Origin: Narcine bancroftii | Taxonomy: Eukaryota | Direction: 5' to 3' | Assembly (NCBI RefSeq): GCF_036971445.1 | Contig: NC_091471.1 | Location: 2,852,001 to 2,916,000 of the forward strand | Length of the DNA: 64,000 bases | Part shown: in pieces, positions 14,530-49,535 of the stretch | Numbering within the stretch: the stretch's first letter is position 1 | Layout: each line of letters begins with the position of its first letter | The notes under the pieces: generated by a model | What the model saw: the letters and a program-made list of their open reading frames with translations, nothing else | Told to the model about the DNA's origin: nothing | Database searches by the model: none | Made by a program: the position numbers and the translations under genes

Positions 14530-15030
14530 TGAGACGGCGCAGATTGACCCTTCCTTCTCCTGACAGGCAGGGTTGGCCCCAGGTCGAGGGGCCGAATGGC
14601 GGTCGCCGCGCAGGCGCAGTTGGGAGCCTATCCGTCGGCCGGATCGGCGATCGACTGTGGCGCCTGCGTCACGGCCGCCGTCGCGAGCGCTGCGGCTGCG
14701 TTCGATTCCGAGCCCTTGCGCGGGCGGCAGCGGCCGGAGGAGCGGGTGCGGAGAGAGCGCGGCGTCGTGGTGTCGGCGGGAGGTGTCGGCGGGAGGTAGG
14801 CCCGGGTCGCCCCGGTCCCACCCCGGGGGAGAGCGGCGCGGCGTGGGGAGAGAGGGCCCGGCGGACGGGCCGGACACGACAGGAAGGCGGCTGATCTCCA
14901 CGCGGCCCCGCGTCTAGAACCTTCCACAAGATGGCGGCCGGGACGGAGCCTGGGCCTAGGCCTTGGCGGGGACTAGGGGTGGGGGAGGGGGAGGTTCCCC
15001 GACTACCCCCCCCCCCCTCTCCGGCCCAGA
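14530..15030 (+). promoter_or_regulatory. CpG-island promoter of the ZNF638-like gene
   Basis: The densest non-repeat CpG-rich segment in the window. Contains NRF1-like GCGCAGGCGCA (14608-14618), CRE-like TGCGTCA (14665-14671) and a perfect YY1 site CAAGATGGCGGC (14927-14938). Confidence 0.8.
14596..14795 (+). other. ZNF638: Candidate exon 1 of the ZNF638-like gene (5' end/TSS unknown)
   Basis: Donor GGGAG|GTAGGC at 14795/14796 lies inside the CpG island, and joining it to 48188 keeps the reading frame open. Confidence 0.5.
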
Positions 15031-15061
15031 TTTTACCATCCTCATCCAGTCCCTCAATTTA

Positions 15062-17745
15062 CTCCCCACCCAGTCTGTCCCCCCCTCCCCCACCCAGTCT
15101 GTCCCCCCTCCCCTCCCCCACCCAGTCTGTCCCCCTTCCCTCACCCAGTCTGTCCCCCTTCCCTCACCCAGTCTGTCCCCCCTCCCCACCCAGTCTGTCC
15201 CCCTCCCCACCCAGTCTGTCCCCCCTCCCCCACCCAATGTCTGTCCCCCCTCCCCCACCCAATGTCTGTCCCCCCCTCCCCCTCCCCACCCAGTCTGTCC
15301 CCCCCTCCCCCACCCAGTCTGTTCCCCCTCCCCTCCCCCACCCAGTCTGTCCCCCCTCCCCTCCCCCACCCAGTCTGTCCCCCCTCCCCTCCCCCACCCA
15401 GTCTGTCCCCCCTCCCCTCCCCCACCCAGTCTGTCCCCCTTCCCTCACCCAGTCTGTCCCCCTTCCCTCACCCAGTCTGTCCCCCTCCCCACCCAGTCTC
15501 TCCCCCCTCCCCACCCAGTCTGTCCCCCTCCCCACCCAGTCTCTCCCCCCTCCCCCACCCAGTCTGTCCCCCTCCCCCACCCAGTCTGTCCCCCCCTCCC
15601 CACCCAGTCTGTCCCCCTCCCCACCCAGTCTCTCCCCCCTCCCCCACCCAGTCTGTCCCCCCCTCCCCACCCAGTCTCTCCCCCCTCCCCCACCCAGTCT
15701 GTCCCCCCTCCCCCACCCAGTCTGTCCCCCCCTCCCCACCCAGTCTGTCCCCCCCTCCCCACCCAGTCTGTCCCCCCTCCCCACCCAGTCTGTCCCCCCT
15801 CCCCCACCCAGTCTGTCCCCCCTCCCCCACCCAGTCTGTCCCCCCTCCCCCACCCAGTCTGTCCCCCCTCCCCCACCCAGTCTGTCCCCCTCCCCACCCA
15901 GTCTGTCCCCCTCCCCACCCAGTCTGTCCCCCTCCCCACCCAGTCTGTCCCCCTCCCCACCCAGTCTGTCCCCCTCCCCACCCAGTCTGTCCCCCTCCCC
16001 ACCCAGTCTGTCCCCCTCCCCACCCAGTCTGTCCCCCTCCCCACCCAGTCTGTCCCCCTCCCCACCCAGTCTGTCCCCCTCCCCACCCAGTCTGTCCCCC
16101 CCCTCCCCACCCAGTCTGTCCCCCCACCCCCACCCAGTCTGTCCCCCTCCCCACCCAGTCTGTCCCCCCACCCCCACCCAGTCTGTCCCCCTCCCCACCC
16201 AGTCTGTCCCCCTCCCCCACCCAGTCTCTCCCCCTCCCCACCCAGTCTGTCCCCCCACCCCCACCCAGTCTGTCCCCCCTCCCCCACCCAGTCTGTCCCC
16301 CTCCCCACCCAGTCTGTCCCCCTCCCCACCCAGTCTGTCCCCCTCCCCACCCAGTCTGTCCCCCTCCCCACCCAGTCTGTCCCCCTCCCCACCCAGTCTG
16401 TCCCCACCCCCACCCAGTCTGTCCCCCCCCTCCCCACCCAGTCTGTCCCCCACCCCCACCCAGTCTGTCCCCCTCCCCACCCAGTCTGTCCCCCTCCCCA
16501 CCCAGTCTGTCCCCCTCCCCACCCAGTCTGTCCCCCCCCTCCCCACCCAGTCTGTCCCCCCCCTCCCCACCCAGTCTGTCCCCCCACCCCCACCCAGTCT
16601 GTCCCCCCACCCCCACCCAGTCTGTCCCCCCTCCCCCACCCAGTCTGTCCCCCTCCCCACCCAGTCTGTCCCCCTCCCCACCCAGTCTGTCCCCCTCCCC
16701 ACCCAGTCTGTCCCCCCCCTCCCCACCCAGTCTGTCCCCCCACCCCCACCCAGTCTGTCCCCCCTCCCCCACCCAGTCTGTCCCCCTCCCCACCCAGTCT
16801 GTCCCCCTCCCCACCCAGTCTGTCCCCACCCCCACCCAGTCTGTCCCCCCCCTCCCCACCCAGTCTGTCCCCCCACCCCCACCCAGTCTGTCCCCCCTCC
16901 CCCACCAAGTCTGTCCCCCCTCCCCCACCCAGTCTGTCCCCCTCTCCACCCAGTCTGTCCCCCTCTCCACCCAGTCTGTCCCCCTCCCCACCCAGTCTGT
17001 CCCCCTCCCCACCCAGTCTGTCCCCCTCCCCACCCAGTCTGTCCCCCTCCCCCACCCAGTCTGTCCCCCCTCCCCCACCCAGTCTGTCCCCACCTCCCCA
17101 CCCAGTCTGTCCCCCCCTCCCCACCCAGTCTGTCTCCCCCTCCCCACCCAGTCTGTCTCCCCCTCCCCCACCCAGTCTGTCCCCCCTCCCCCACCCGGTC
17201 TGTCCCCCCTCCCCCACCCGGTCTGTCCCCCCTCCCCCACCCGGTCTGTGCCCCCCCTCACCCACCCGGTCTGTCCCCCCCTCCCCCACCCGGTCTGTCC
17301 CCCCCTCCCCCACCCGGTCTGTCCCCCCCTCCCCCACCCGATCTGTCCGTACCTCCCCCACCCGGTCTGTCCCTCCCTCCCCCACCCGGTCTGTCCCCCC
17401 CTCCCCCACCCGGTCTGTCCCCCCCTCCCCCACCCGGTCTGTCCCCCCCCCTCCCCCACCCGGTCTGTGTCCCCCCCCCACCCGGTCTGTGTCCCCCCCC
17501 CCACCCGGTCTGTGTCCCCCCCCCCCACCCGGTCTCTGTTCCCCCCTCCCCCACCCGGTCTGTCCCCCCTCCCCCACCCGGTCTGTCCCCCCTCCCCCAC
17601 CCGGTCTGTCCCCCCTCCCCCACCCGGTCTGTCCCCCCTCCCCCACCCGGTCTGTCCCCCCTCCCCCACCCGGTCTGTCCCCCCTCCCCCACCCGGTCTG
17701 TCCCCCCTCCCCCACCCGGTTTGTCCCCCCTCCCCCACCTGGTGT
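15062..17745. repeat. C-rich minisatellite, ~19-22 bp unit CCCACCCAGTCTGTCCCCCTCC (~130 copies)
   Basis: Directly visible; C-run length varies, and the core switches from CAG to CGG at ~17195. Confidence 0.97.
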
Positions 17746-20562
17746 CTGATTCCCCCCACCCCGTGCCTGATTTCCCCCCCCCTCCATCCTGTGCCTGATT
17801 TCCCCTCCTCCCTAATTCCCTATATGTACCCCATCTGGTCTGTGGTTCCTCCATTCCCACCTGGTTCCTATTACCCTTCCCCTTGCAACCCCTCCCAATC
17901 CTCCTCCCGGCATCTCTCTTCCCCATCCCCCTGCTTCAAACCATGTCCCTTCTCCCCAGTCCCTCCTTGCGGTTTCTCCTCGTCCTCCACTGCTGCTCTC
18001 CCTCCCAAAATGGTGTTCCTGCTCTGAAAACCTTTCCTTCCCCCACTCAATATTCTGTTCTACCCCTTCTTCCCTTCCAATTGCTGATGTGACTGACTGA
18101 TGGGAGGAATGCTTCATTGGATGTACGTAGGGCAGTCTTTGGTCTGTATTGGGGTGACTTTGGCTATTTCTGTGACCCTACCATTGCAGTTCTCTCAGGT
18201 AATCATTGAATGGAGCCCATAGCCTGGAAGGAAACCAGTTTTTGTTTTATAATCTCACCCAAAGTTCCCTCAGTGTTTGATTTTGTTTGTTTTTCACTCT
18301 GCAACACAAGCATCTTGTCCTCCTGCTTCAGTTCTGGCTGTGAAATCTCAGATGTTAACTTTCGCTAGTTGTCGAAGTTCTTTATATTTTCTTCCCTCTA
18401 GTTGTCTCTGACCTTCCTCTCTTTTATTATAAGCCTGGGATGGGTGGCGTCATGATCCAGATGCTGTTTGTTCATTGGTATTTTGGAGAAATGCAAAATG
18501 AATTTTTTCCTCTCTAAAAATGAGGTGAAGGACAGTTTGCTGATTTAATACCAGTCAATGATCCTTCCTTTGAATTTGCTGTTCATGAACATTTTAACTC
18601 TAAGCTGGCATAAAATGCCCTACAATCTCCATGTGTTTTGAACTATCAGCTTATCCCTTGAAAGGAATGGACTAATTTAATTTTTTTTTCCTCAGGGTGT
18701 ATCTGAAAAGAATTTCATTGCAACTTAACTTTTCACAAATCAAATCTGTACGTTAACAAAAGCAAATCTGGTGTTATTTCTGTAATTCTGCAAACTTCAT
18801 TGTCAGTGAGAGCATGGGGGGGAGAAATGAACAGTAGTGGCCAGCAGAGAGCCTGCTTGGACTGGATGCTGAAGGAAATGGGGGAAGGGGTTGGAGAAAG
18901 CAAGGAGAGAGGTGATTTATTATTGAAGACGTGAACATTTCTGGAAGAAACACGGAGGCTGGGTTTCTTGGGCCACTGATTAGAATTGAATTGGAGAGGA
19001 CTGAAATGGCATTTGGGAAACTTTCCTAGGGAGTATTAGCCTGATGAAGAGAAATCTAATAGAGGCTATTGGAGCAGAGCTTCCAAGGGAAGAAGGAATG
19101 TCGAAAGGTGTAAACATTTCAGCTGAGGATGAATGACATCGATGATTGTTGGTTAAGATACAATGTTTTCTGGATTTATTCAGATTTAAATGGACCTGAT
19201 CAGAATAAATGTATAAATTTGCATCTGCTCATGTCCAGAGGGTAATGAGAAATGTTTGGAAATTACATCATTAGACAATAAGATTTGTTTCATACATTCT
19301 GTGTGGCCTGGAATAGAGATCTTGTGTACTATTCCACTAGGAGCCATTTAGCAAACAGTTGGATGAAAAATTTACATCTGGAATTAGATGTCTATACTTC
19401 CTAAGAGCCAACAGTGTGAAAATCAGGTCGACAGGATCTCTGATGCAACTTCCCAAAACATTTTTGTGGAGCGGTAGCATGCATATCATTTTCTTCCCAC
19501 TTTTGTCTCCTCTTGTTATTGCTTGCACACATCACTGAGCCAATGCACGAGCAATAATGCCCTTTTGATTTCCTTCTTGGTACCAAGAATTGATTTTGTT
19601 TTGCACAAGACATGCACGTTTTAATGATTCATTTTATGGAGAAGATGATGGGTCAAAAATGAGATGGACTAATTTTAACTCATTTTCAGTATCTAAGTAA
19701 ATTTTATACATCATAAAGATAGAATTACTAATCGTCGGTACAATGTTCATATTCTCAATTCACAGTTGCCCTGGGTAAGATCTATCCTTTCATGCTATTT
19801 ATATCCAGTGTAAAATTCAATGGTTTTTGTCACAGGAGTAGTGAAAGGTAAGTATTATAGGGGTTTTTTTAATTCCTGGGGTTTAATGGGTCTGCATTTG
19901 TACTTTGTTCCTAATGGTTAATGTGCTTTGTTTAGATTAATTCCATGTCTCCAGTCTTTCAGTTGACCTCTGGGTTTTTTGCCCTTGCTTTCCTTGAGTG
20001 AAAGCAAGTTGCAGGCCAGATAGTCAAAGATGTGATTTTCGTCTTCAGTTTAACAGTTTTTTACAAAGTAATTGAGTAGGATGAATATTTTAGAGCCTTC
20101 ACTGTATATTAGAACTTGAAAATCACAAAATTAAATATTGCACATTTAAAATATTCCAAATCATCTGTGCCTCCATGAATGCTGGCAAGTCTCACTGTTG
20201 CTTTCAACCCTCGTCAAGTTGCAGTTTCAGCTGATCTGGCCATTGTCAGCGCTACTGCCTTTTTATCTGGTCGATTATTCGGCAATTTAAAATAAGTAAT
20301 TTGTGTGATGGAATGAATGAGAAGATAATGAGGTTAAGCATCATCTTGAAAGTTTCAGGTCAACTGGGAGAAGAATGGAGAGTTCAGTTGGGATATGGGA
20401 GAAAGGCCTATCCAGAAATAGATTGGGTAATAAAGCAGCGCTATTAACAGGCCATTTTAAAGAAACTGGGTGAGAAATGGATGTGAGCAGGATAATGCAG
20501 AATCATTTCTTTACCCACAAAGAAAGAATGATATTTGTAGTTGGCAGGGAGCTGCTGCTTAA

Positions 20563-22780: not shown

Positions 22781-25700
22781 TGGATGTGATGTATTGCAGA
22801 TGCCACCCTTTTGCAAGTGATGTATTGCAGATGCCCCCCTTTTGCAAGTGATGTATTGCAGATGCCCCCCTTTTGCAAGTCATGTATTGCAGATGCCCCC
22901 CTTTTGCAAGTCATGTATTGCAGATGCCCCTCTTTTGGATGTGATGTATTGCAGATGCCCCCCTTTTGCAAGTCATGTATTGCAGATGCCCCCCTTTTGG
23001 ATGTGATGTATTGCAGATGCCCCCCTTTTGGATGTGATGTATTGCAGATGCCCCCCTTTTGGATGTGATGTATTGCAGATGCCCCCCTTTTGCAAGTGAT
23101 GTATTGCAGATGCCCCCCTTTTGGATGTGATGTATTGCAGATGCCCCCCTTTTGCAAGTGATATATTGCAGATGCCCCCCTTTTGCAAGTGATGTATTGC
23201 AGATGCCCCCCTTTTGCAAGTGATGTATTGCAGATGCCCCCCTTTTGCAAGTGATGTATTGCAGATGCCCCCCTTTTGCAAGTGATGTATTGCAGATGCC
23301 CCCCTTTTGCAAGTGATGTATTGCAGATGCCCCCCTTTTGCAAGTGATGTATTGCAGATGCCCCCCTTTTGCAAGTGATGTATTGCAGATGCCCCCCTTT
23401 TGCAAGTGATGTATTGCAGATGCCCCCCTTTTGCAAGTGATGTATTGCAGATGCCCCCCTTTTGCAAGTCATGTATTGCAGATGCCCCCCTTTTGCAAGT
23501 GATGTATTGCAGATGCCCCCCTTTTGCAAGTGATGTATTGCAGATGCCCCCCTTTAGCAAGTGATGTATTGCAGATGCCCCCCTTTTGGATGTGATGTAT
23601 TGCAGATACCCCCTTTTGCAAGTGATGTATTGCAGATGCCCCCCTTTTGGATGTGATGTATTGCAGATGCCCCCCTTTTGCAAGTGATGTATTGCAGATG
23701 CCCCCCTTTTGCAAGTGATGGATTGCAGATGCCCCCCTTTTGCAAGTGATGTATTGCAGATGCCCCCCTTTTGCAAGTGATGTATTGCAGATGCCCCCCT
23801 TTTGCAAGTGATGTATTACAGATGCCCCCCTTTTGGATGTGATGTATTGCAGATGCCCCCCTTTTGCAAGTGATGTATTGCAGATGCCCCCCTTTTGGAA
23901 GTGATGTATTGCAGATGCCCCCCTTTTGGATGTGATGTATTGCAGATGCCCCCCTTTTGCAAGTGATGTATTGCAGATGCCCCCCTTTTGCAAGTGATGT
24001 ATTGCAGATGCCCCCCTTTTGGATGTGATGTATTGCAGATGCCCCCCTTTTGCAAGTGGTGTATTGCAGATGCCCCCCTTTTGCAAGTGATGTATTGCAG
24101 ATGCCCCTGCTTTTGCAAGTGATGTATTGCAGATGCCCCCCTTTTGGATGTGATGTATTGCAGATGCCCCCCTTTTGCAAGTGGTGTATTGCAGATGCCC
24201 CCCTTTTGCAAGTGATGTATTGCAGATGCCCCCCTTTTGCAAGTGATGTATTGCAGATGCCCCCCTTTTGGAAGTGATGTATTGCAGATGCCCCCCTTTT
24301 GCAAGTGATGTATTGCAGATGCCCCCCTTTTGCAAGTGATGTATTGCAGATGCCCCCCTTTTGCAAGTGATGTATTGCAGATGCCCCCCTTTTGCAAGTC
24401 ATGTATTGCAGATGCCCCCCTTTTGGATGTGATGTATTGCAGATGCCCCGCTTTTGCAAGTGATGTATTGCAGATGCCCCCCTTTTGCAAGTGATGTATT
24501 GCAGATGCCCCCCTTTTGCAAGTGATGTATTGCAGATGCCCCTCTTTTGCAAGTGATGTATTGCAGATGCCCCCCTTTTGCAAGTGATGTATTGCAGATG
24601 CCCCCCTTTTGCAAGTGATGTATTGCAGATGCCCCCCTTTTGGATGTGATGTATTGCAGATGCCCCCCTTTTGCAAGTGATGTATTGCATATGCCCCCCT
24701 TTTGCAAGTGATGTATTGCATATGCCCCCCTTTTGCAAGTGATGTATTGCAGATGCCCCCCTTTTGCAAGTGATGTATTGCAGATGCCCCCCTTTTGCAA
24801 GTGACGTATTGCAGATGCCCCCCTTTTGCAAGTGACGTATTGCAGATGCCCCCCTTTTGCAAGTGATGTATTGCAGATGCCCCCCTTTTGGAAGTGATGT
24901 ATTGCAGATGCCCCCCTTTTGCAAGTGATGTATTGCAGATGCCCCCCTTTTGCAAGTGATGTATTGCAGATGCCCCCCTTTTGCAAGTGATGTATTGCAG
25001 ATGCCCCCCTTTTGCAAGTGATGTATTGCAGATGCCCCCCTTTTGCAAGTGATGTATTGCAGATGCCCCCCTTTTGCAAGTGATGTATTGCAGATGCCCC
25101 CCTTTTGCAAGTGATATATTGCAGATGCCCCCCTTTTGCAAGTGATGTATTGCAGATGCCCCCCTTTTGCAAGTGATGTATTGCAGATGCCCCCCTTTTG
25201 CAAGTGATGTATTGCAGATGCCCCCCTTTTGCAAGTGATGTATTGCAGATGCCCCCCTTTTGCAAGTGATGTATTGCAGATGCCCCCCTTTTGCAAGTGA
25301 TGTATTGCAGATGCCCCCCTTTTGCAAGTCATGTATTGCAGATGCCCCCCTTTTGCAAGTGATGTATTGCAGATGCCCCCCTTTTGCAAGTCATGTATTG
25401 CAGATGCCCCCCTTTTGGATGTGATGTATTGCAGATGCCCCCCTTTTGCAAGTGATGTATTGCAGATGCCCCCCTTTTGCAAGTGATGTATTGCAGATGC
25501 CCCCCTTTTGCAAGTGATGTATTGCAGATGCCCCCCTTTTGCAAGTGATGTATTGCAGATGCCCCCCTTTTGCAAGTCATGTATTGCAGATGCCCCCCTT
25601 TTGCAAGTGATGTATTGCAGATGCCCCCCTTTTGCAAGTGATGTATTGCAGATGCCCCCCTTTTGCAAGTGATGTATTGCAGATGCCCCCCTTTTGCAAG

Positions 25701-26470
25701 TCATGTATTGCAGATGCCCCCCTTTTGCAAGTCATGTATTGCAGATGCCCCCCTTTTGGATGTGATGTATTGCAGATGCCCCCCTTTTGCAAGTCATGTA
25801 TTGCAGATGCCCCCCTTTTGCAAGTCATGTATTGCAGATGCCCCCCTTTTGGATGTGATGTATTGCAGATGCCCCCCTTTTGCAAGTCATGTATTGCAGA
25901 TGCCCCCCTTTTGCAAGTCGTGTATTGCAGATGCCCCCCTTTTGCAAGTGGTGTATTGCAGATGCCCCCCTTTTGCAAGTGATGTATTGCAGATGCCCCC
26001 CTTTTGCAAGTGATGTATTGCAGATGCCCCCCTTTTGGATGTGATGTATTGCAGATGCCCCCCTTTTGCAAGTGATGTATTGCAGATGCCCCCCTTTTGC
26101 AAGTGATGTATTGCAGATGCCCCCCTTTTGCAAGTGATGTATTGCAGATGCCCCCCTTTTGGATGTGATGTATTGCAGATGCCCCCCTTTTGCAAGTGAT
26201 GTATTGCAGATGCCCCCCTTTTGCAAGTGATGTATTGCAGATGCCCCCCTTTTGCAAGTGATGTATTGCAGATGCCCCCCTTTTGGAAGTGATGTATTGC
26301 AGATGCCCCCCTTTTGCAACTGATGTATTGCAGATGCCCCCCTTTTGCAAGTGATGTATTGCAGATGCCCCCCTTTTGCAAGTGATGTATTGCAGATGCC
26401 CCCCTTTTGCAAGTGACGTATTGCAGATGCCCCCCTTTTGGAAGTGACGTATTGCAGATGCCCCATTTTG
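22781..26470. repeat. 31-bp tandem satellite GTGATGTATTGCAGATGCCCCCCTTTTGCAA (~119 copies)
   Basis: Directly visible and highly homogeneous, with recurrent GGAT/GCAA and GTC/GTG variants. Confidence 0.98.
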
Positions 26471-27599
26471 TTGCCATGGTACTTGTAGCTGGTTCTTGCG
26501 CTTGAGATCTTTGGGATGCTGGTGCAGAATTTGGCAGTGTCTCGTGTTGGAGCTGGTCCTTGCCACTAATATTCATGTCTGAATGTTTCTGGGTCTTATT
26601 GCACAGTTGCAAAGATTGTTTTTGAGGAACAAGAATGAAATGTTGGACGCTCATATACTGATGGAGAGATGGCCATTGAAGCAGAAGTGGATGAGGCAAG
26701 GCTGCTGCATGGAGGGGGATGCCGGGGCCTGCATGATTGAACTCGAATGAGCACAACCAGTATCTTCTTGGTGATGTAGGATTCCCCACCTGTTGAGACC
26801 ACTTTTACAAGGGCTGCACTGATGAGGGCAGCCTCTCACCACTTCTTTGGAAACCTTTGGCTCAGTTTTGCACAGAATTTCCATGGGCCTGGTGCGAAAT
26901 GGTCCTGGAGATGCCCAGACTGAGCTTAATGAGCAAATTATAGGCAATTATTTTGGAGCAGTTGTTTCTTGAGAGTTGACTGATAGGGAGATGGATTAAC
27001 TTTATTCCTTTATAAAGTGTTTGGTTTTCATGGTTGTCAACATTGTGACTGGTTCCTGTACATTCAGTTGTTTCTTCATCACGGGGTAAATTGAATTTGA
27101 CCTCCAGGAAGCTAAGATGGATGTCTAAATAAAAACAGAAAATGCTCGGTGGGAAGAGAAACGGGGAATGTTTCAAGTAGAAGTTCCTTTAGGTGGTGAA
27201 GGGTGTCCTTGCGCTACATGGCCTTTGGTCGTACTTGTAATACTGCTATGAGCATGTGTGTCTTCAACAGATCTTGTTACCCTCCGCCATTTGCCCTGTC
27301 TGGCCAAGTTAGTTTTAGGCTGATTTTGACGGGCACTGAACTTGGAGAGATTGCTTCTTCATATTCTAGTAAATACCTCGGACTCCAAGGATGACCTTTT
27401 GATTGTGAGCCAGTGGTTGTTGGTGGAAAGGTGAACCTTGGATTATATTTCACTGTGAGATTCAGGGTAAAGCTGGTGATATTGGCACCTGTTCATCCCA
27501 GGTATGGGATGGCTCTCCCAATCTGGACATTTCATGCTTGATCATCGACTAACTGCAGATACTAGGTGTCTGGAATGAAAAAACCGGCTTCAGTTCTAA

Positions 27600-47910: not shown

Positions 47911-48187
47911 GGAATGTACCTCCCCACGGTATTACATCTAGTATTATCTTGCATACCGGTCTGAGCGCTTCACAAATTTCGTAATGTTGTCCATTTTAGT
48001 TGGGCATTTACACATTTCATCAGTTTATGGATGTCCTGAATTAACTGTTTTTGTTTTATTTTATAACTTACAAAAATAGCTTTTTAAAAGCTGTCAAACA
48101 TATATGTCTTGATCACTGGCTTTAAAACCCTTTGCTGCGAATATTTCCTGAAACGTAAAAATCTAATATTTGTGTTTTAACTTTCAG

Positions 48188-49535
48188 CTTTGCGTTATTC
48201 TTGGAAAATTGTGCTCCAGCAGTGAATTCATTGAACCTCGGCATTACCAGTCCGCTTCTGTTAGGCTCAGCAAATTTGCAGCTCGCCCAGATAAAAGCCC
48301 AGCTAGCTCTCCAGCAGCTGAATTCTGTCGCCTCTTCAACTGTATCGAACACAGCCCTTGCGTCTCTGAACCAAGCTCTCGTGAAGATCAACATGTCCAT
48401 GTTCAATGCCAGAGGGGCATTTGGCCAGAGTCGGGGCCCTCCCAACCAGTATGGGCAAAGTCAGGGCCCTCCCAACCAGTATGGGCAAAGTCAGGGCCCT
48501 GTAAATCAGTACGGGCTAAGTCAGGGCCCTGCCAACCAGTATGGGCAAAGTCAGGGCCCTCCCAGTCAGTATGGGCAAAGTCAGGGCCCTCCCAGCCAGT
48601 ATGGGCAAAGTCAGTGCCCTCCCAGCCAGTTTGGACAAAGTCAGGGCCCTCCCAGCCAGTTTGGACAAAGTCAGGGCCCTCCCAGCCACTTTGGGAAGAC
48701 TCAAGTTCCACCTAACCAGTTCCAGAATCAAGGACCTCCTAACCAGTTTGCCATGAACACTCCAGGACCCTATATGGGAGGAGGAGTCGGAGGTACAGGA
48801 AGAGGAATGGGAATGGGAGCTCAAGGAACATCACAAGGCAACTTTGGAATGGGCATGGGAATGATGAATCAACCTGGAAGTAATGTAGGCTTAGGTCAGT
48901 GGTCCTCCTATCAAAGTCCTTCATCTGGAGGTTATCGGCCTGGATATGGGAACACTGCGACCCCTTCATCTCAAAGTGGAGAACAGAGATCTGCAGTTCA
49001 GCTTTTTCATGACACAATGAAGGCTACCAACATCCTTGCAAACTTTGGCCTGTCTAACGAAGACCTAGAAGAGCTTAGTCGCTACCCAGATGAGAAGCTT
49101 ACTCCAGAAAACATGCCCTACATTTTAAGAGAAATTAGAATGCGCAAGATGAATAAGCAGCAGGCGTCCAGCAGTTATGATCAAGCACACAAGCTGCAGG
49201 ATAAAGACTACAGAAGAGAAGTGCAGAGCAGTGTGGTGGATTACGGGCACGGTCAGCAATACGACTATCGGGATAGACCCATGGAGAACCAGAGCATGCA
49301 TTACAGCCGCGAAACACTGAGAGAAGGGACCTGGAAAGAAGATTTCAAGCGCCCTCCTCAGAATTATCCCTTGGAATCTTCACGAGATGAGAGTACGCAT
49401 ACAATCAAGCGAACAGTTCAAGTGGTGAAGAAGGGATTGCCAAAGCCCAAGCTGATGAATGATTACTATGGCGTCCCCGCACTGAGGTTCCCCCACGTGT
49501 GCAGTTTGTGTAACATAGAATGTAGACAAATGAGG
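48188..49535 (+). CDS. ZNF638: ZNF638/NP220-like exon 2: Leu-rich extension, first AUG at 48393 (MSMFNARG), Q/G/P repeats, Matrin-type N-terminal motif, first half of zinc finger
   Basis: Acceptor TTTTAACTTTCAG|; donor AGG|GTGAGT (phase 0). NILANFGLSNEDLEELSRYPDEKLTPENMPYILREIRMRKM, SSVVDYGH and LMNDYYG...FPHVCSLCNIEC match recalled ZNF638 sequence better than MATR3. Confidence 0.9.

Follow-up and report, generated by a model that had tools for sequence, protein, structure and literature searches.

Introduction

The closest described system to the locus treated here is RBM20. According to Radke et al. 2026 (PMC13198548), the coding exon 1 of this gene is complemented by an alternative first exon within intron 1, exon 1B, and a shorter protein is initiated at an ATG in exon 2. 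In mice in which exon 1 had been disrupted, P-sites and footprints upstream of the exon-2 ATG were low (PMC13198548). The leucine-rich region was placed at the N-terminus of RBM20 by a review (PMC6279932), and its function is called unassigned in the text of PMC13198548, from which ZNF638 is absent and in which the residue number of the exon-2 ATG is not given.

For human ZNF638, the supplementary tables of Rodriguez et al. 2024 (PMC11317171) list an N-terminal extension with an upstream ATG (Table S2), made up of an upstream exon of 113 nt that carries the ATG and 202 nt of exon 2, and one peptide of the extension from two cell-line runs (Table S3); conservation of the extension is given to 'sharks and rays'. 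The ATG was picked by rule, irrespective of conservation, and ZNF638 occurs in the table rows only, not in the main text, with no link there to RBM20 or to promoter choice. Conserved non-AUG N-terminal extensions (PMC3105428, Ivanov et al. 2011; PMC9789052, Fedorova et al. 2022) resemble the present case in having an in-frame, conserved, AUG-free stretch before the annotated start. A human L1 has been reported as an alternative ZNF638 promoter (PMC10619931) and is a different element from the first exons described below. Literature searches, with subscription papers mostly outside their coverage, returned no paper on a long ZNF638 isoform or on a homology or parallel between ZNF638 and RBM20. 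What is new here is the distal first exon of ZNF638 in the genome of Narcine bancroftii, the conservation of this exon across jawed vertebrates, and the layout that it shares with RBM20.

The 5' part of exon 2

The window (the whole stretch of 64,000 nucleotides that was analysed, contig NC_091471.1, positions 2,852,001 to 2,916,000 of the forward strand) was assigned to the ZNF638 (NP220) orthologue by its best protein matches, which were ZNF638-like and identical, with exons co-linear through the window. Coordinates without a prefix are those of the window. Exon 2 was located at 48188-49535 on the plus strand, with the acceptor AG ending at 48187 and a GT donor after the last base, and it ends within the first zinc-finger-like Cys motif. 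The exon opens with one base of a split codon (phase 2), and the main frame, read from 48189, is open through exon 2 into the ZNF638 coding region. Between 48188 and 48392 ATG is absent from all frames, and 68 stop-free codons precede the AUG at 48393-48395 (-3 A, +4 T), the putative start of a short form. The first-pass annotation had described this stretch as stop-free in the main frame and without an in-frame AUG; both points were verified on the sequence, and the quoted peptide was reproduced. Openness alone is weak evidence, since 68 codons stayed open in about 5% of the shuffled sequences and stops are also missing from the frame that starts at 48188. The conservation of the stretch is far beyond chance. 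Downstream of the putative short-form start, tandem 10-residue Gly/Gln/Pro repeats occupy 48424-48740, and their copy number varies among shark and ray models.

Part of this was already annotated. The RefSeq ZNF638-like proteins P0001 and P0002 of Narcine bancroftii are 100% identical over the stretch and are annotated as coding from an exon-1 ATG at 14596, from which five RefSeq isoforms of the locus (XP_069779497-501) translate it. The human reference protein (1978 aa, P0215) starts at the exon-2 Met and is devoid of the extension; comparison of P0215 with long primate models supported the proposed equivalence of AUG 48393 with the human reference start. The earlier label 'unannotated' stands only for the human reference protein and for the distal exon in Narcine bancroftii. 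The label 'hidden' falls, as the RefSeq models of this locus translate the stretch and human Table S2 lists it.

A query of 78 amino acids gave 12 protein matches, with identities of 92-100% among sharks and rays; those for a caecilian, two birds and a catfish were lower (51-67%). With a bird query 128 matches were obtained, and mammals, birds, turtles, a crocodilian and squamates were represented among the 120 listed. A profile search of 1.84 billion representatives returned 53 matches, by eye 32 ZNF638-like, 20 RBM20-like and one unrelated; the profile contained the RBM20 sequence of this genome (L002, below), so the RBM20 matches are not independent. None of the 53 was MATR3-like, the profile holding an RBM20 sequence and no MATR3 sequence. 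The homologues are related gene models that were chosen because they contain the extension, a sample in which no lineage that has lost it could be represented. In 78 of their 81 distinct extensions the first Met of exon 2 is reached after 63-71 residues, which keeps the stretch free of Met, and length changes among the homologues preserve the frame. The extension is real and ancient.

Relationship to RBM20

When the genome of Narcine bancroftii was searched with the ZNF638 stretch, the only other match (47%, E 3.4e-5) fell at a locus, L002, which was identified as RBM20 by co-linear matches to a named shark RBM20 (P0142). The alignment covers 58 residues, 28 of them identical, and its score was reached by 0 of 2000 shuffles. 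The exon 2 acceptors of the two genes are both phase 2 and stand at the same aligned position, a Leu-Glu pair occupies codons 5-6 in both, with the P0142 match starting at residue 40, and the first exon-2 Met of RBM20 aligns with the ZNF638 AUG at 48393. As judged from this sequence comparison, the 5' part of exon 2 (48188-48392) is homologous to the leucine-rich region of RBM20, and the resemblance proposed at first reading is supported by alignment; the stretch is referred to below as the Leu/Gln-rich module. A shifted frame is also stop-free across the module in ZNF638 (48167-48715, 182 codons) and in the RBM20 paralogue (L002:1259-1726, 155 codons). Protein similarity there is low, and the shared open frame is probably a by-product of codon composition.

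In a codon test on the ZNF638/RBM20 pair alone, identities at the three codon positions were 35, 36 and 32 of 58, with no third-position signature. The same codon was found at 19 of the 28 identical residues, about twice the 9.6 expected at saturation (48213-48398 against L002:1477-1701), a possible sign of constraint on the nucleotides themselves or of very slow evolution; a constraint of the former kind may overlap the coding sequence. Codon identity above the saturation expectation, the second open frame and the roughly 5% of shuffles that are open would all suit a conserved non-coding element of the 5' UTR with an incidental open frame. That reading is extremely improbable. The homologous RBM20 stretch is established coding sequence, the main-ORF frame scores 115 against the paralogue versus 49 and 47 for the other two frames, the length changes among homologues keep the frame, and the twofold detection of the human peptide (PMC11317171) largely refutes a non-coding role. 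The same two cell-line runs uphold the claim that the stretch is translated. Lying downstream of every candidate start, the peptide listed in Table S3 cannot tell the starts apart.

Clustered RRM and zinc-finger matches to RBM20 were also observed on the minus strand at G000:C21:56400996-56602302. Their arrangement suggests two or three related genes side by side, probably MATR3-like, a label that we infer. The own-genome search with the ZNF638 stretch gave no match to the leucine-rich module at this cluster.

A probable distal first exon

The segments preceding exon 2 in the homologues are of two classes, those unrelated between species and short Met-started segments with a shared tail. Of 177 proteins 139 could be anchored, and 51 of 100 distinct upstream segments were Met-started with the same short tail, while 46 did not fit the tail motif, teleosts included; Asp-Pro was present at -5/-4 in 43 of 102 upstream segments versus 15 of 4254 other positions. 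Because the motif was defined once the data had been seen, and on related sequences, the counts are descriptive of a pattern and should not be read as probabilities. The class with the tail comprises placentals, marsupials, birds, turtles, squamates, a caecilian, a frog, a lungfish and a shark; in teleosts the segment also begins with Met and is about as long, but lacks the tail. In RefSeq and UniRef, long ZNF638 isoforms of zebra shark (XP_059506706.1), stingray (XP_072898137.1) and chimpanzee (XP_009440921.2) already join this exon, designated 1a, to the stretch. They are automatic models, and many other species, the five isoforms of the present locus included, have been given unrelated N-termini.

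The orthologue of exon 1a was predicted from sawfish and zebra-shark models and then sought genome-wide. A single match was obtained, G000:C8:2775729-2775830 (E 6.4e-5, 62% identity to residues 1-34 of P0003), upstream of exon 2 on the same strand and contig. The exon as delimited by this homology search (plus strand, G000:C8:2775729-2775832, or L003:1501-1604) lies outside the window, whose first base is about 76 kb farther downstream. It stands at a distance of 124,355 nt from exon 2 and of about 91 kb from the CpG-island exon treated below; short tblastn searches for it inside the window gave noise only. Its ATG has a strong context (-3 A, +4 G) and is followed by 34 codons and 2 bases, 104 coding bases in all, up to a phase-2 GT donor compatible with exon 2, and an in-frame stop is located 11 codons upstream of the ATG. 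On joining to exon 2 the split codon would be Ser, matching the zebra-shark model, and the 1a peptide is identical to zebra-shark P0008 in 16 of 34 residues and to ray P0236 in 12 of 28. An AUG in an upstream exon had been one of the start sources envisaged in the first-pass annotation, and this conserved, phase-compatible exon would supply it.

Exon 1a is joined directly to exon 2 in the RefSeq models of a shark (P0008, P0212-P0214) and of a stingray (P0236), and in the stingray the 1a model coexists with an exon-1b model (P0007). All five RefSeq isoforms seen for the Narcine bancroftii locus use exon 1b and none uses 1a; splicing of 1a to exon 2 in this species is likely, to judge from the orthologous models. 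The human lengths of 113 and 202 nt in Table S2 of PMC11317171 both fit the phase of the 1a/exon 2 junction. From this we infer that the human 113-nt exon is 1a, although the chimpanzee model P0226 points to an exon longer by one codon.

A scan for an intervening gene between 1a and 1b covered 12 of the 29 ORFs of at least 200 aa, a sample that short host exons would escape; four were of reverse-transcriptase type and eight gave no match. A CpG-rich patch in this interval belongs to a retrotransposon, of which it forms the 5' end. Synteny was uninformative, Mpp10 mapping to another contig.

Other features of the interval were recorded. A near-full-length non-LTR retrotransposon (L004:4500-9107, G000:C8:2846500-2851107) lies between the first exons on the strand of the gene, and has a 1042-codon endonuclease and reverse-transcriptase frame and a CpG-rich tandem-repeat 5' end. 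On the minus strand, a gag/protease/reverse-transcriptase retroelement frame (L011:18-2378, G000:C8:2772018-2774378) is situated about 1.4 kb upstream of the 1a ATG. An out-of-frame ATG in weak context stands 34 nt upstream of the 1a ATG, and its 15-codon frame (L003:1467-1514, G000:C8:2775695-2775742) overlaps that ATG; this could be a regulatory uORF if it lies within the mRNA.

The proximal first exon

The proximal first exon, 1b, lies in a CpG island and extends from the ATG chosen by RefSeq to a phase-2 GT donor (14596-14795, plus strand). The CpG exon is flanked by elements that we take to be NRF1-like (14608-14617) and YY1-like (about 14926-14937). Within intron 1, the intervals 15000-18000 and 22800-26800 are strongly strand-skewed and poor in CpG, with long ORFs in several of the frames, and the former is a simple tandem array where read.

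If the RefSeq models are correct, the long form of Narcine bancroftii starts at ATG 14596 and carries a 67-residue leader before the module. The frame is indeed open from 14596 through the phase-2 donor, the ATG has a G at +4, and Met-started models in the same 1b frame exist in two stingray genera (P0006, P0232). The leader, however, is identical to the stingray models in only 24-25 of 59 residues (24-25 of 59-60 with the devil-ray model included) versus 92-100% for the exon-2 stretch. Orthologous model segments match 1b best in three different frames, the sawfish segment in +1 and the first 15 residues of the devil-ray model in +2, and the base at -3 is C. The ATG is also placed just upstream of the presumed NRF1-like element, and may be promoter sequence that is not part of the mRNA. 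A start at 14596 is accordingly quite unlikely, and on the frames compared 1b does not behave as coding.

The frame of 1b is not kept across rays, so the proximal transcripts probably start at the exon-2 AUG, 48393, a placement that is also favoured by the position of the Met and by short gene models. RefSeq isoforms starting at the exon-2 Met occur in a caecilian, a toad, a mormyrid and primates, and a bamboo-shark RBM20 model (P0180) starts in the same way; in these four lineages long and short ZNF638 models coexist as pairs. The idea that translation might enter the extension from a start in the frame of exon 1b was not borne out, as that frame shifts between rays.

ZNF638 thus most likely has two alternative first exons, and inclusion of the module would be set by promoter choice, not by start-codon stringency. 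Transcripts from the distal promoter would be initiated at the AUG of exon 1a and spliced in frame to exon 2, giving a long protein with the RBM20-like Leu/Gln module; transcripts from the CpG-island exon 1b would be scanned to the AUG at 48393, giving a short protein without it.

Near-cognate codons in exon 2

The first-pass annotation had proposed initiation at a near-cognate codon under start-codon-stringency control. An in-frame TTG (48201-48203; -3 T, +4 G) and an in-frame GTG (48222-48224; -3 G, +4 A) are present, and the residues that they encode are well kept (Leu5 in 78 of 81 extensions, Val12 in 74 of 81). If 1b transcripts were also initiated at either codon, most of the module could be reached by an AUG-independent, stringency-controlled route, which could coexist with the use of two promoters. 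The human peptide, moreover, was obtained from two cultured cell lines (PMC11317171), where the CpG promoter would be expected to dominate.

Conservation nevertheless begins four codons before TTG 48201 and continues into 1a. Three of the four upstream codons are conserved as amino acids, positions 1, 3 and 4 being kept in 80, 69 and 75 of the 81 extensions, and the Asp-Pro tail is in another exon; both are explained by read-through from 1a. Codon 2 is not constant, encoding Val in most species and Ala here and in other sharks and rays. The contexts of the TTG and the GTG are only moderate, and an in-frame AUG is available upstream, in exon 1a here and as the ATG of the human table (PMC11317171). 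The low footprints upstream of the RBM20 exon-2 ATG (PMC13198548) point the same way. Taken together, near-cognate initiation is unlikely, the TTG is not favoured, and the proposed stringency control is not supported. Two automatic gene calls, P0133 and P0169, take the Val equivalent to GTG 48222 as their first residue; this is a product of the gene caller rather than a sign of translation.

ZNF638 was not found in the 11 of 13 supplement files of PMC9789052 that were searched, in the main text of PMC3105428, or in the supplements of PMC5834625. The locus differs from the conserved non-AUG extensions of PMC3105428 and PMC9789052 in that a conserved in-frame AUG exon upstream removes the need for a non-AUG start.

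Predicted structure of the module

Residues 1-108 of the zebra-shark protein P0008 were modelled with AlphaFold2. Three helices were predicted (residues 31-45, 62-84 and 88-104) at low confidence (pLDDT 57, pTM 0.26), the best supported being helix 62-84, with block pLDDT of 68-76 over residues 61-80. Mapped by alignment, this central helix with its Leu/Gln-rich core corresponds to 48270-48338 in the window. The first predicted helix, at the same low confidence, spans the 1a/exon 2 junction. Pfam gave no match for the extension, the best hit of a PDB sequence profile had an E of 0.18, and Foldseek returned 0 matches for the model. A two-copy complex prediction of the module gave no answer on self-association either way (score 0.00, its own fold being uncertain).

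Protein binding is the commonest role of short amphipathic helices that lie in a disordered tail. On that ground the module is most likely a short amphipathic protein-binding element of three predicted helices, which would tune the partners or the abundance of the protein.

Discussion

The layout proposed for ZNF638 resembles that of RBM20. In RBM20 a coding first exon is spliced, and in ZNF638 exon 1a would be spliced, to an exon 2 that starts with the leucine-rich region, the position and phase of the intron being the same. The second promoter proposed here, with its first exon inside intron 1 and translation of a shorter protein from the ATG of exon 2, also has its counterpart in RBM20 (PMC13198548). 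Exon 1a supplies the upstream first exon with an in-frame AUG and a compatible donor; the splice from 1b to exon 2 is present in the RefSeq models of this locus, and that from 1a in models of relatives (P0008, P0236). The genes differ in that the reference form is the long one in RBM20 and the short one in human ZNF638, and in that the proximal exon of ZNF638 lies in a CpG island. The text of PMC13198548 describes the short RBM20 as shifted toward a leucine-rich start, whereas in the present alignment most of the leucine-rich helices are upstream of that Met.

It is possible, at a little short of even chances, that a promoter switch in the common ancestor of the two genes already added or omitted a three-helix Leu/Gln interaction module before a shared exon-2 Met, and that both RBM20 and ZNF638 have kept this switch across jawed vertebrates. 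Human ZNF638/NP220 would then have a functional long form with its own partners or tissue pattern.

NP220 recruits the HUSH silencing complex. If a long form is conserved from sharks to primates, the standard ZNF638/NP220 constructs, whose first residue is the exon-2 Met (P0215), lack a counterpart of the leucine-rich region of RBM20, and work on silencing and splicing has relied on a reference protein that does not represent the human long form. The finding involves no new translation mechanism. For annotation, it replaces a probably spurious N-terminus in Narcine bancroftii and explains the unrelated leaders of many vertebrate models. For the family, the parallel between ZNF638 and RBM20 would provide a second, widely expressed gene in which the role of the leucine-rich region may be tested.
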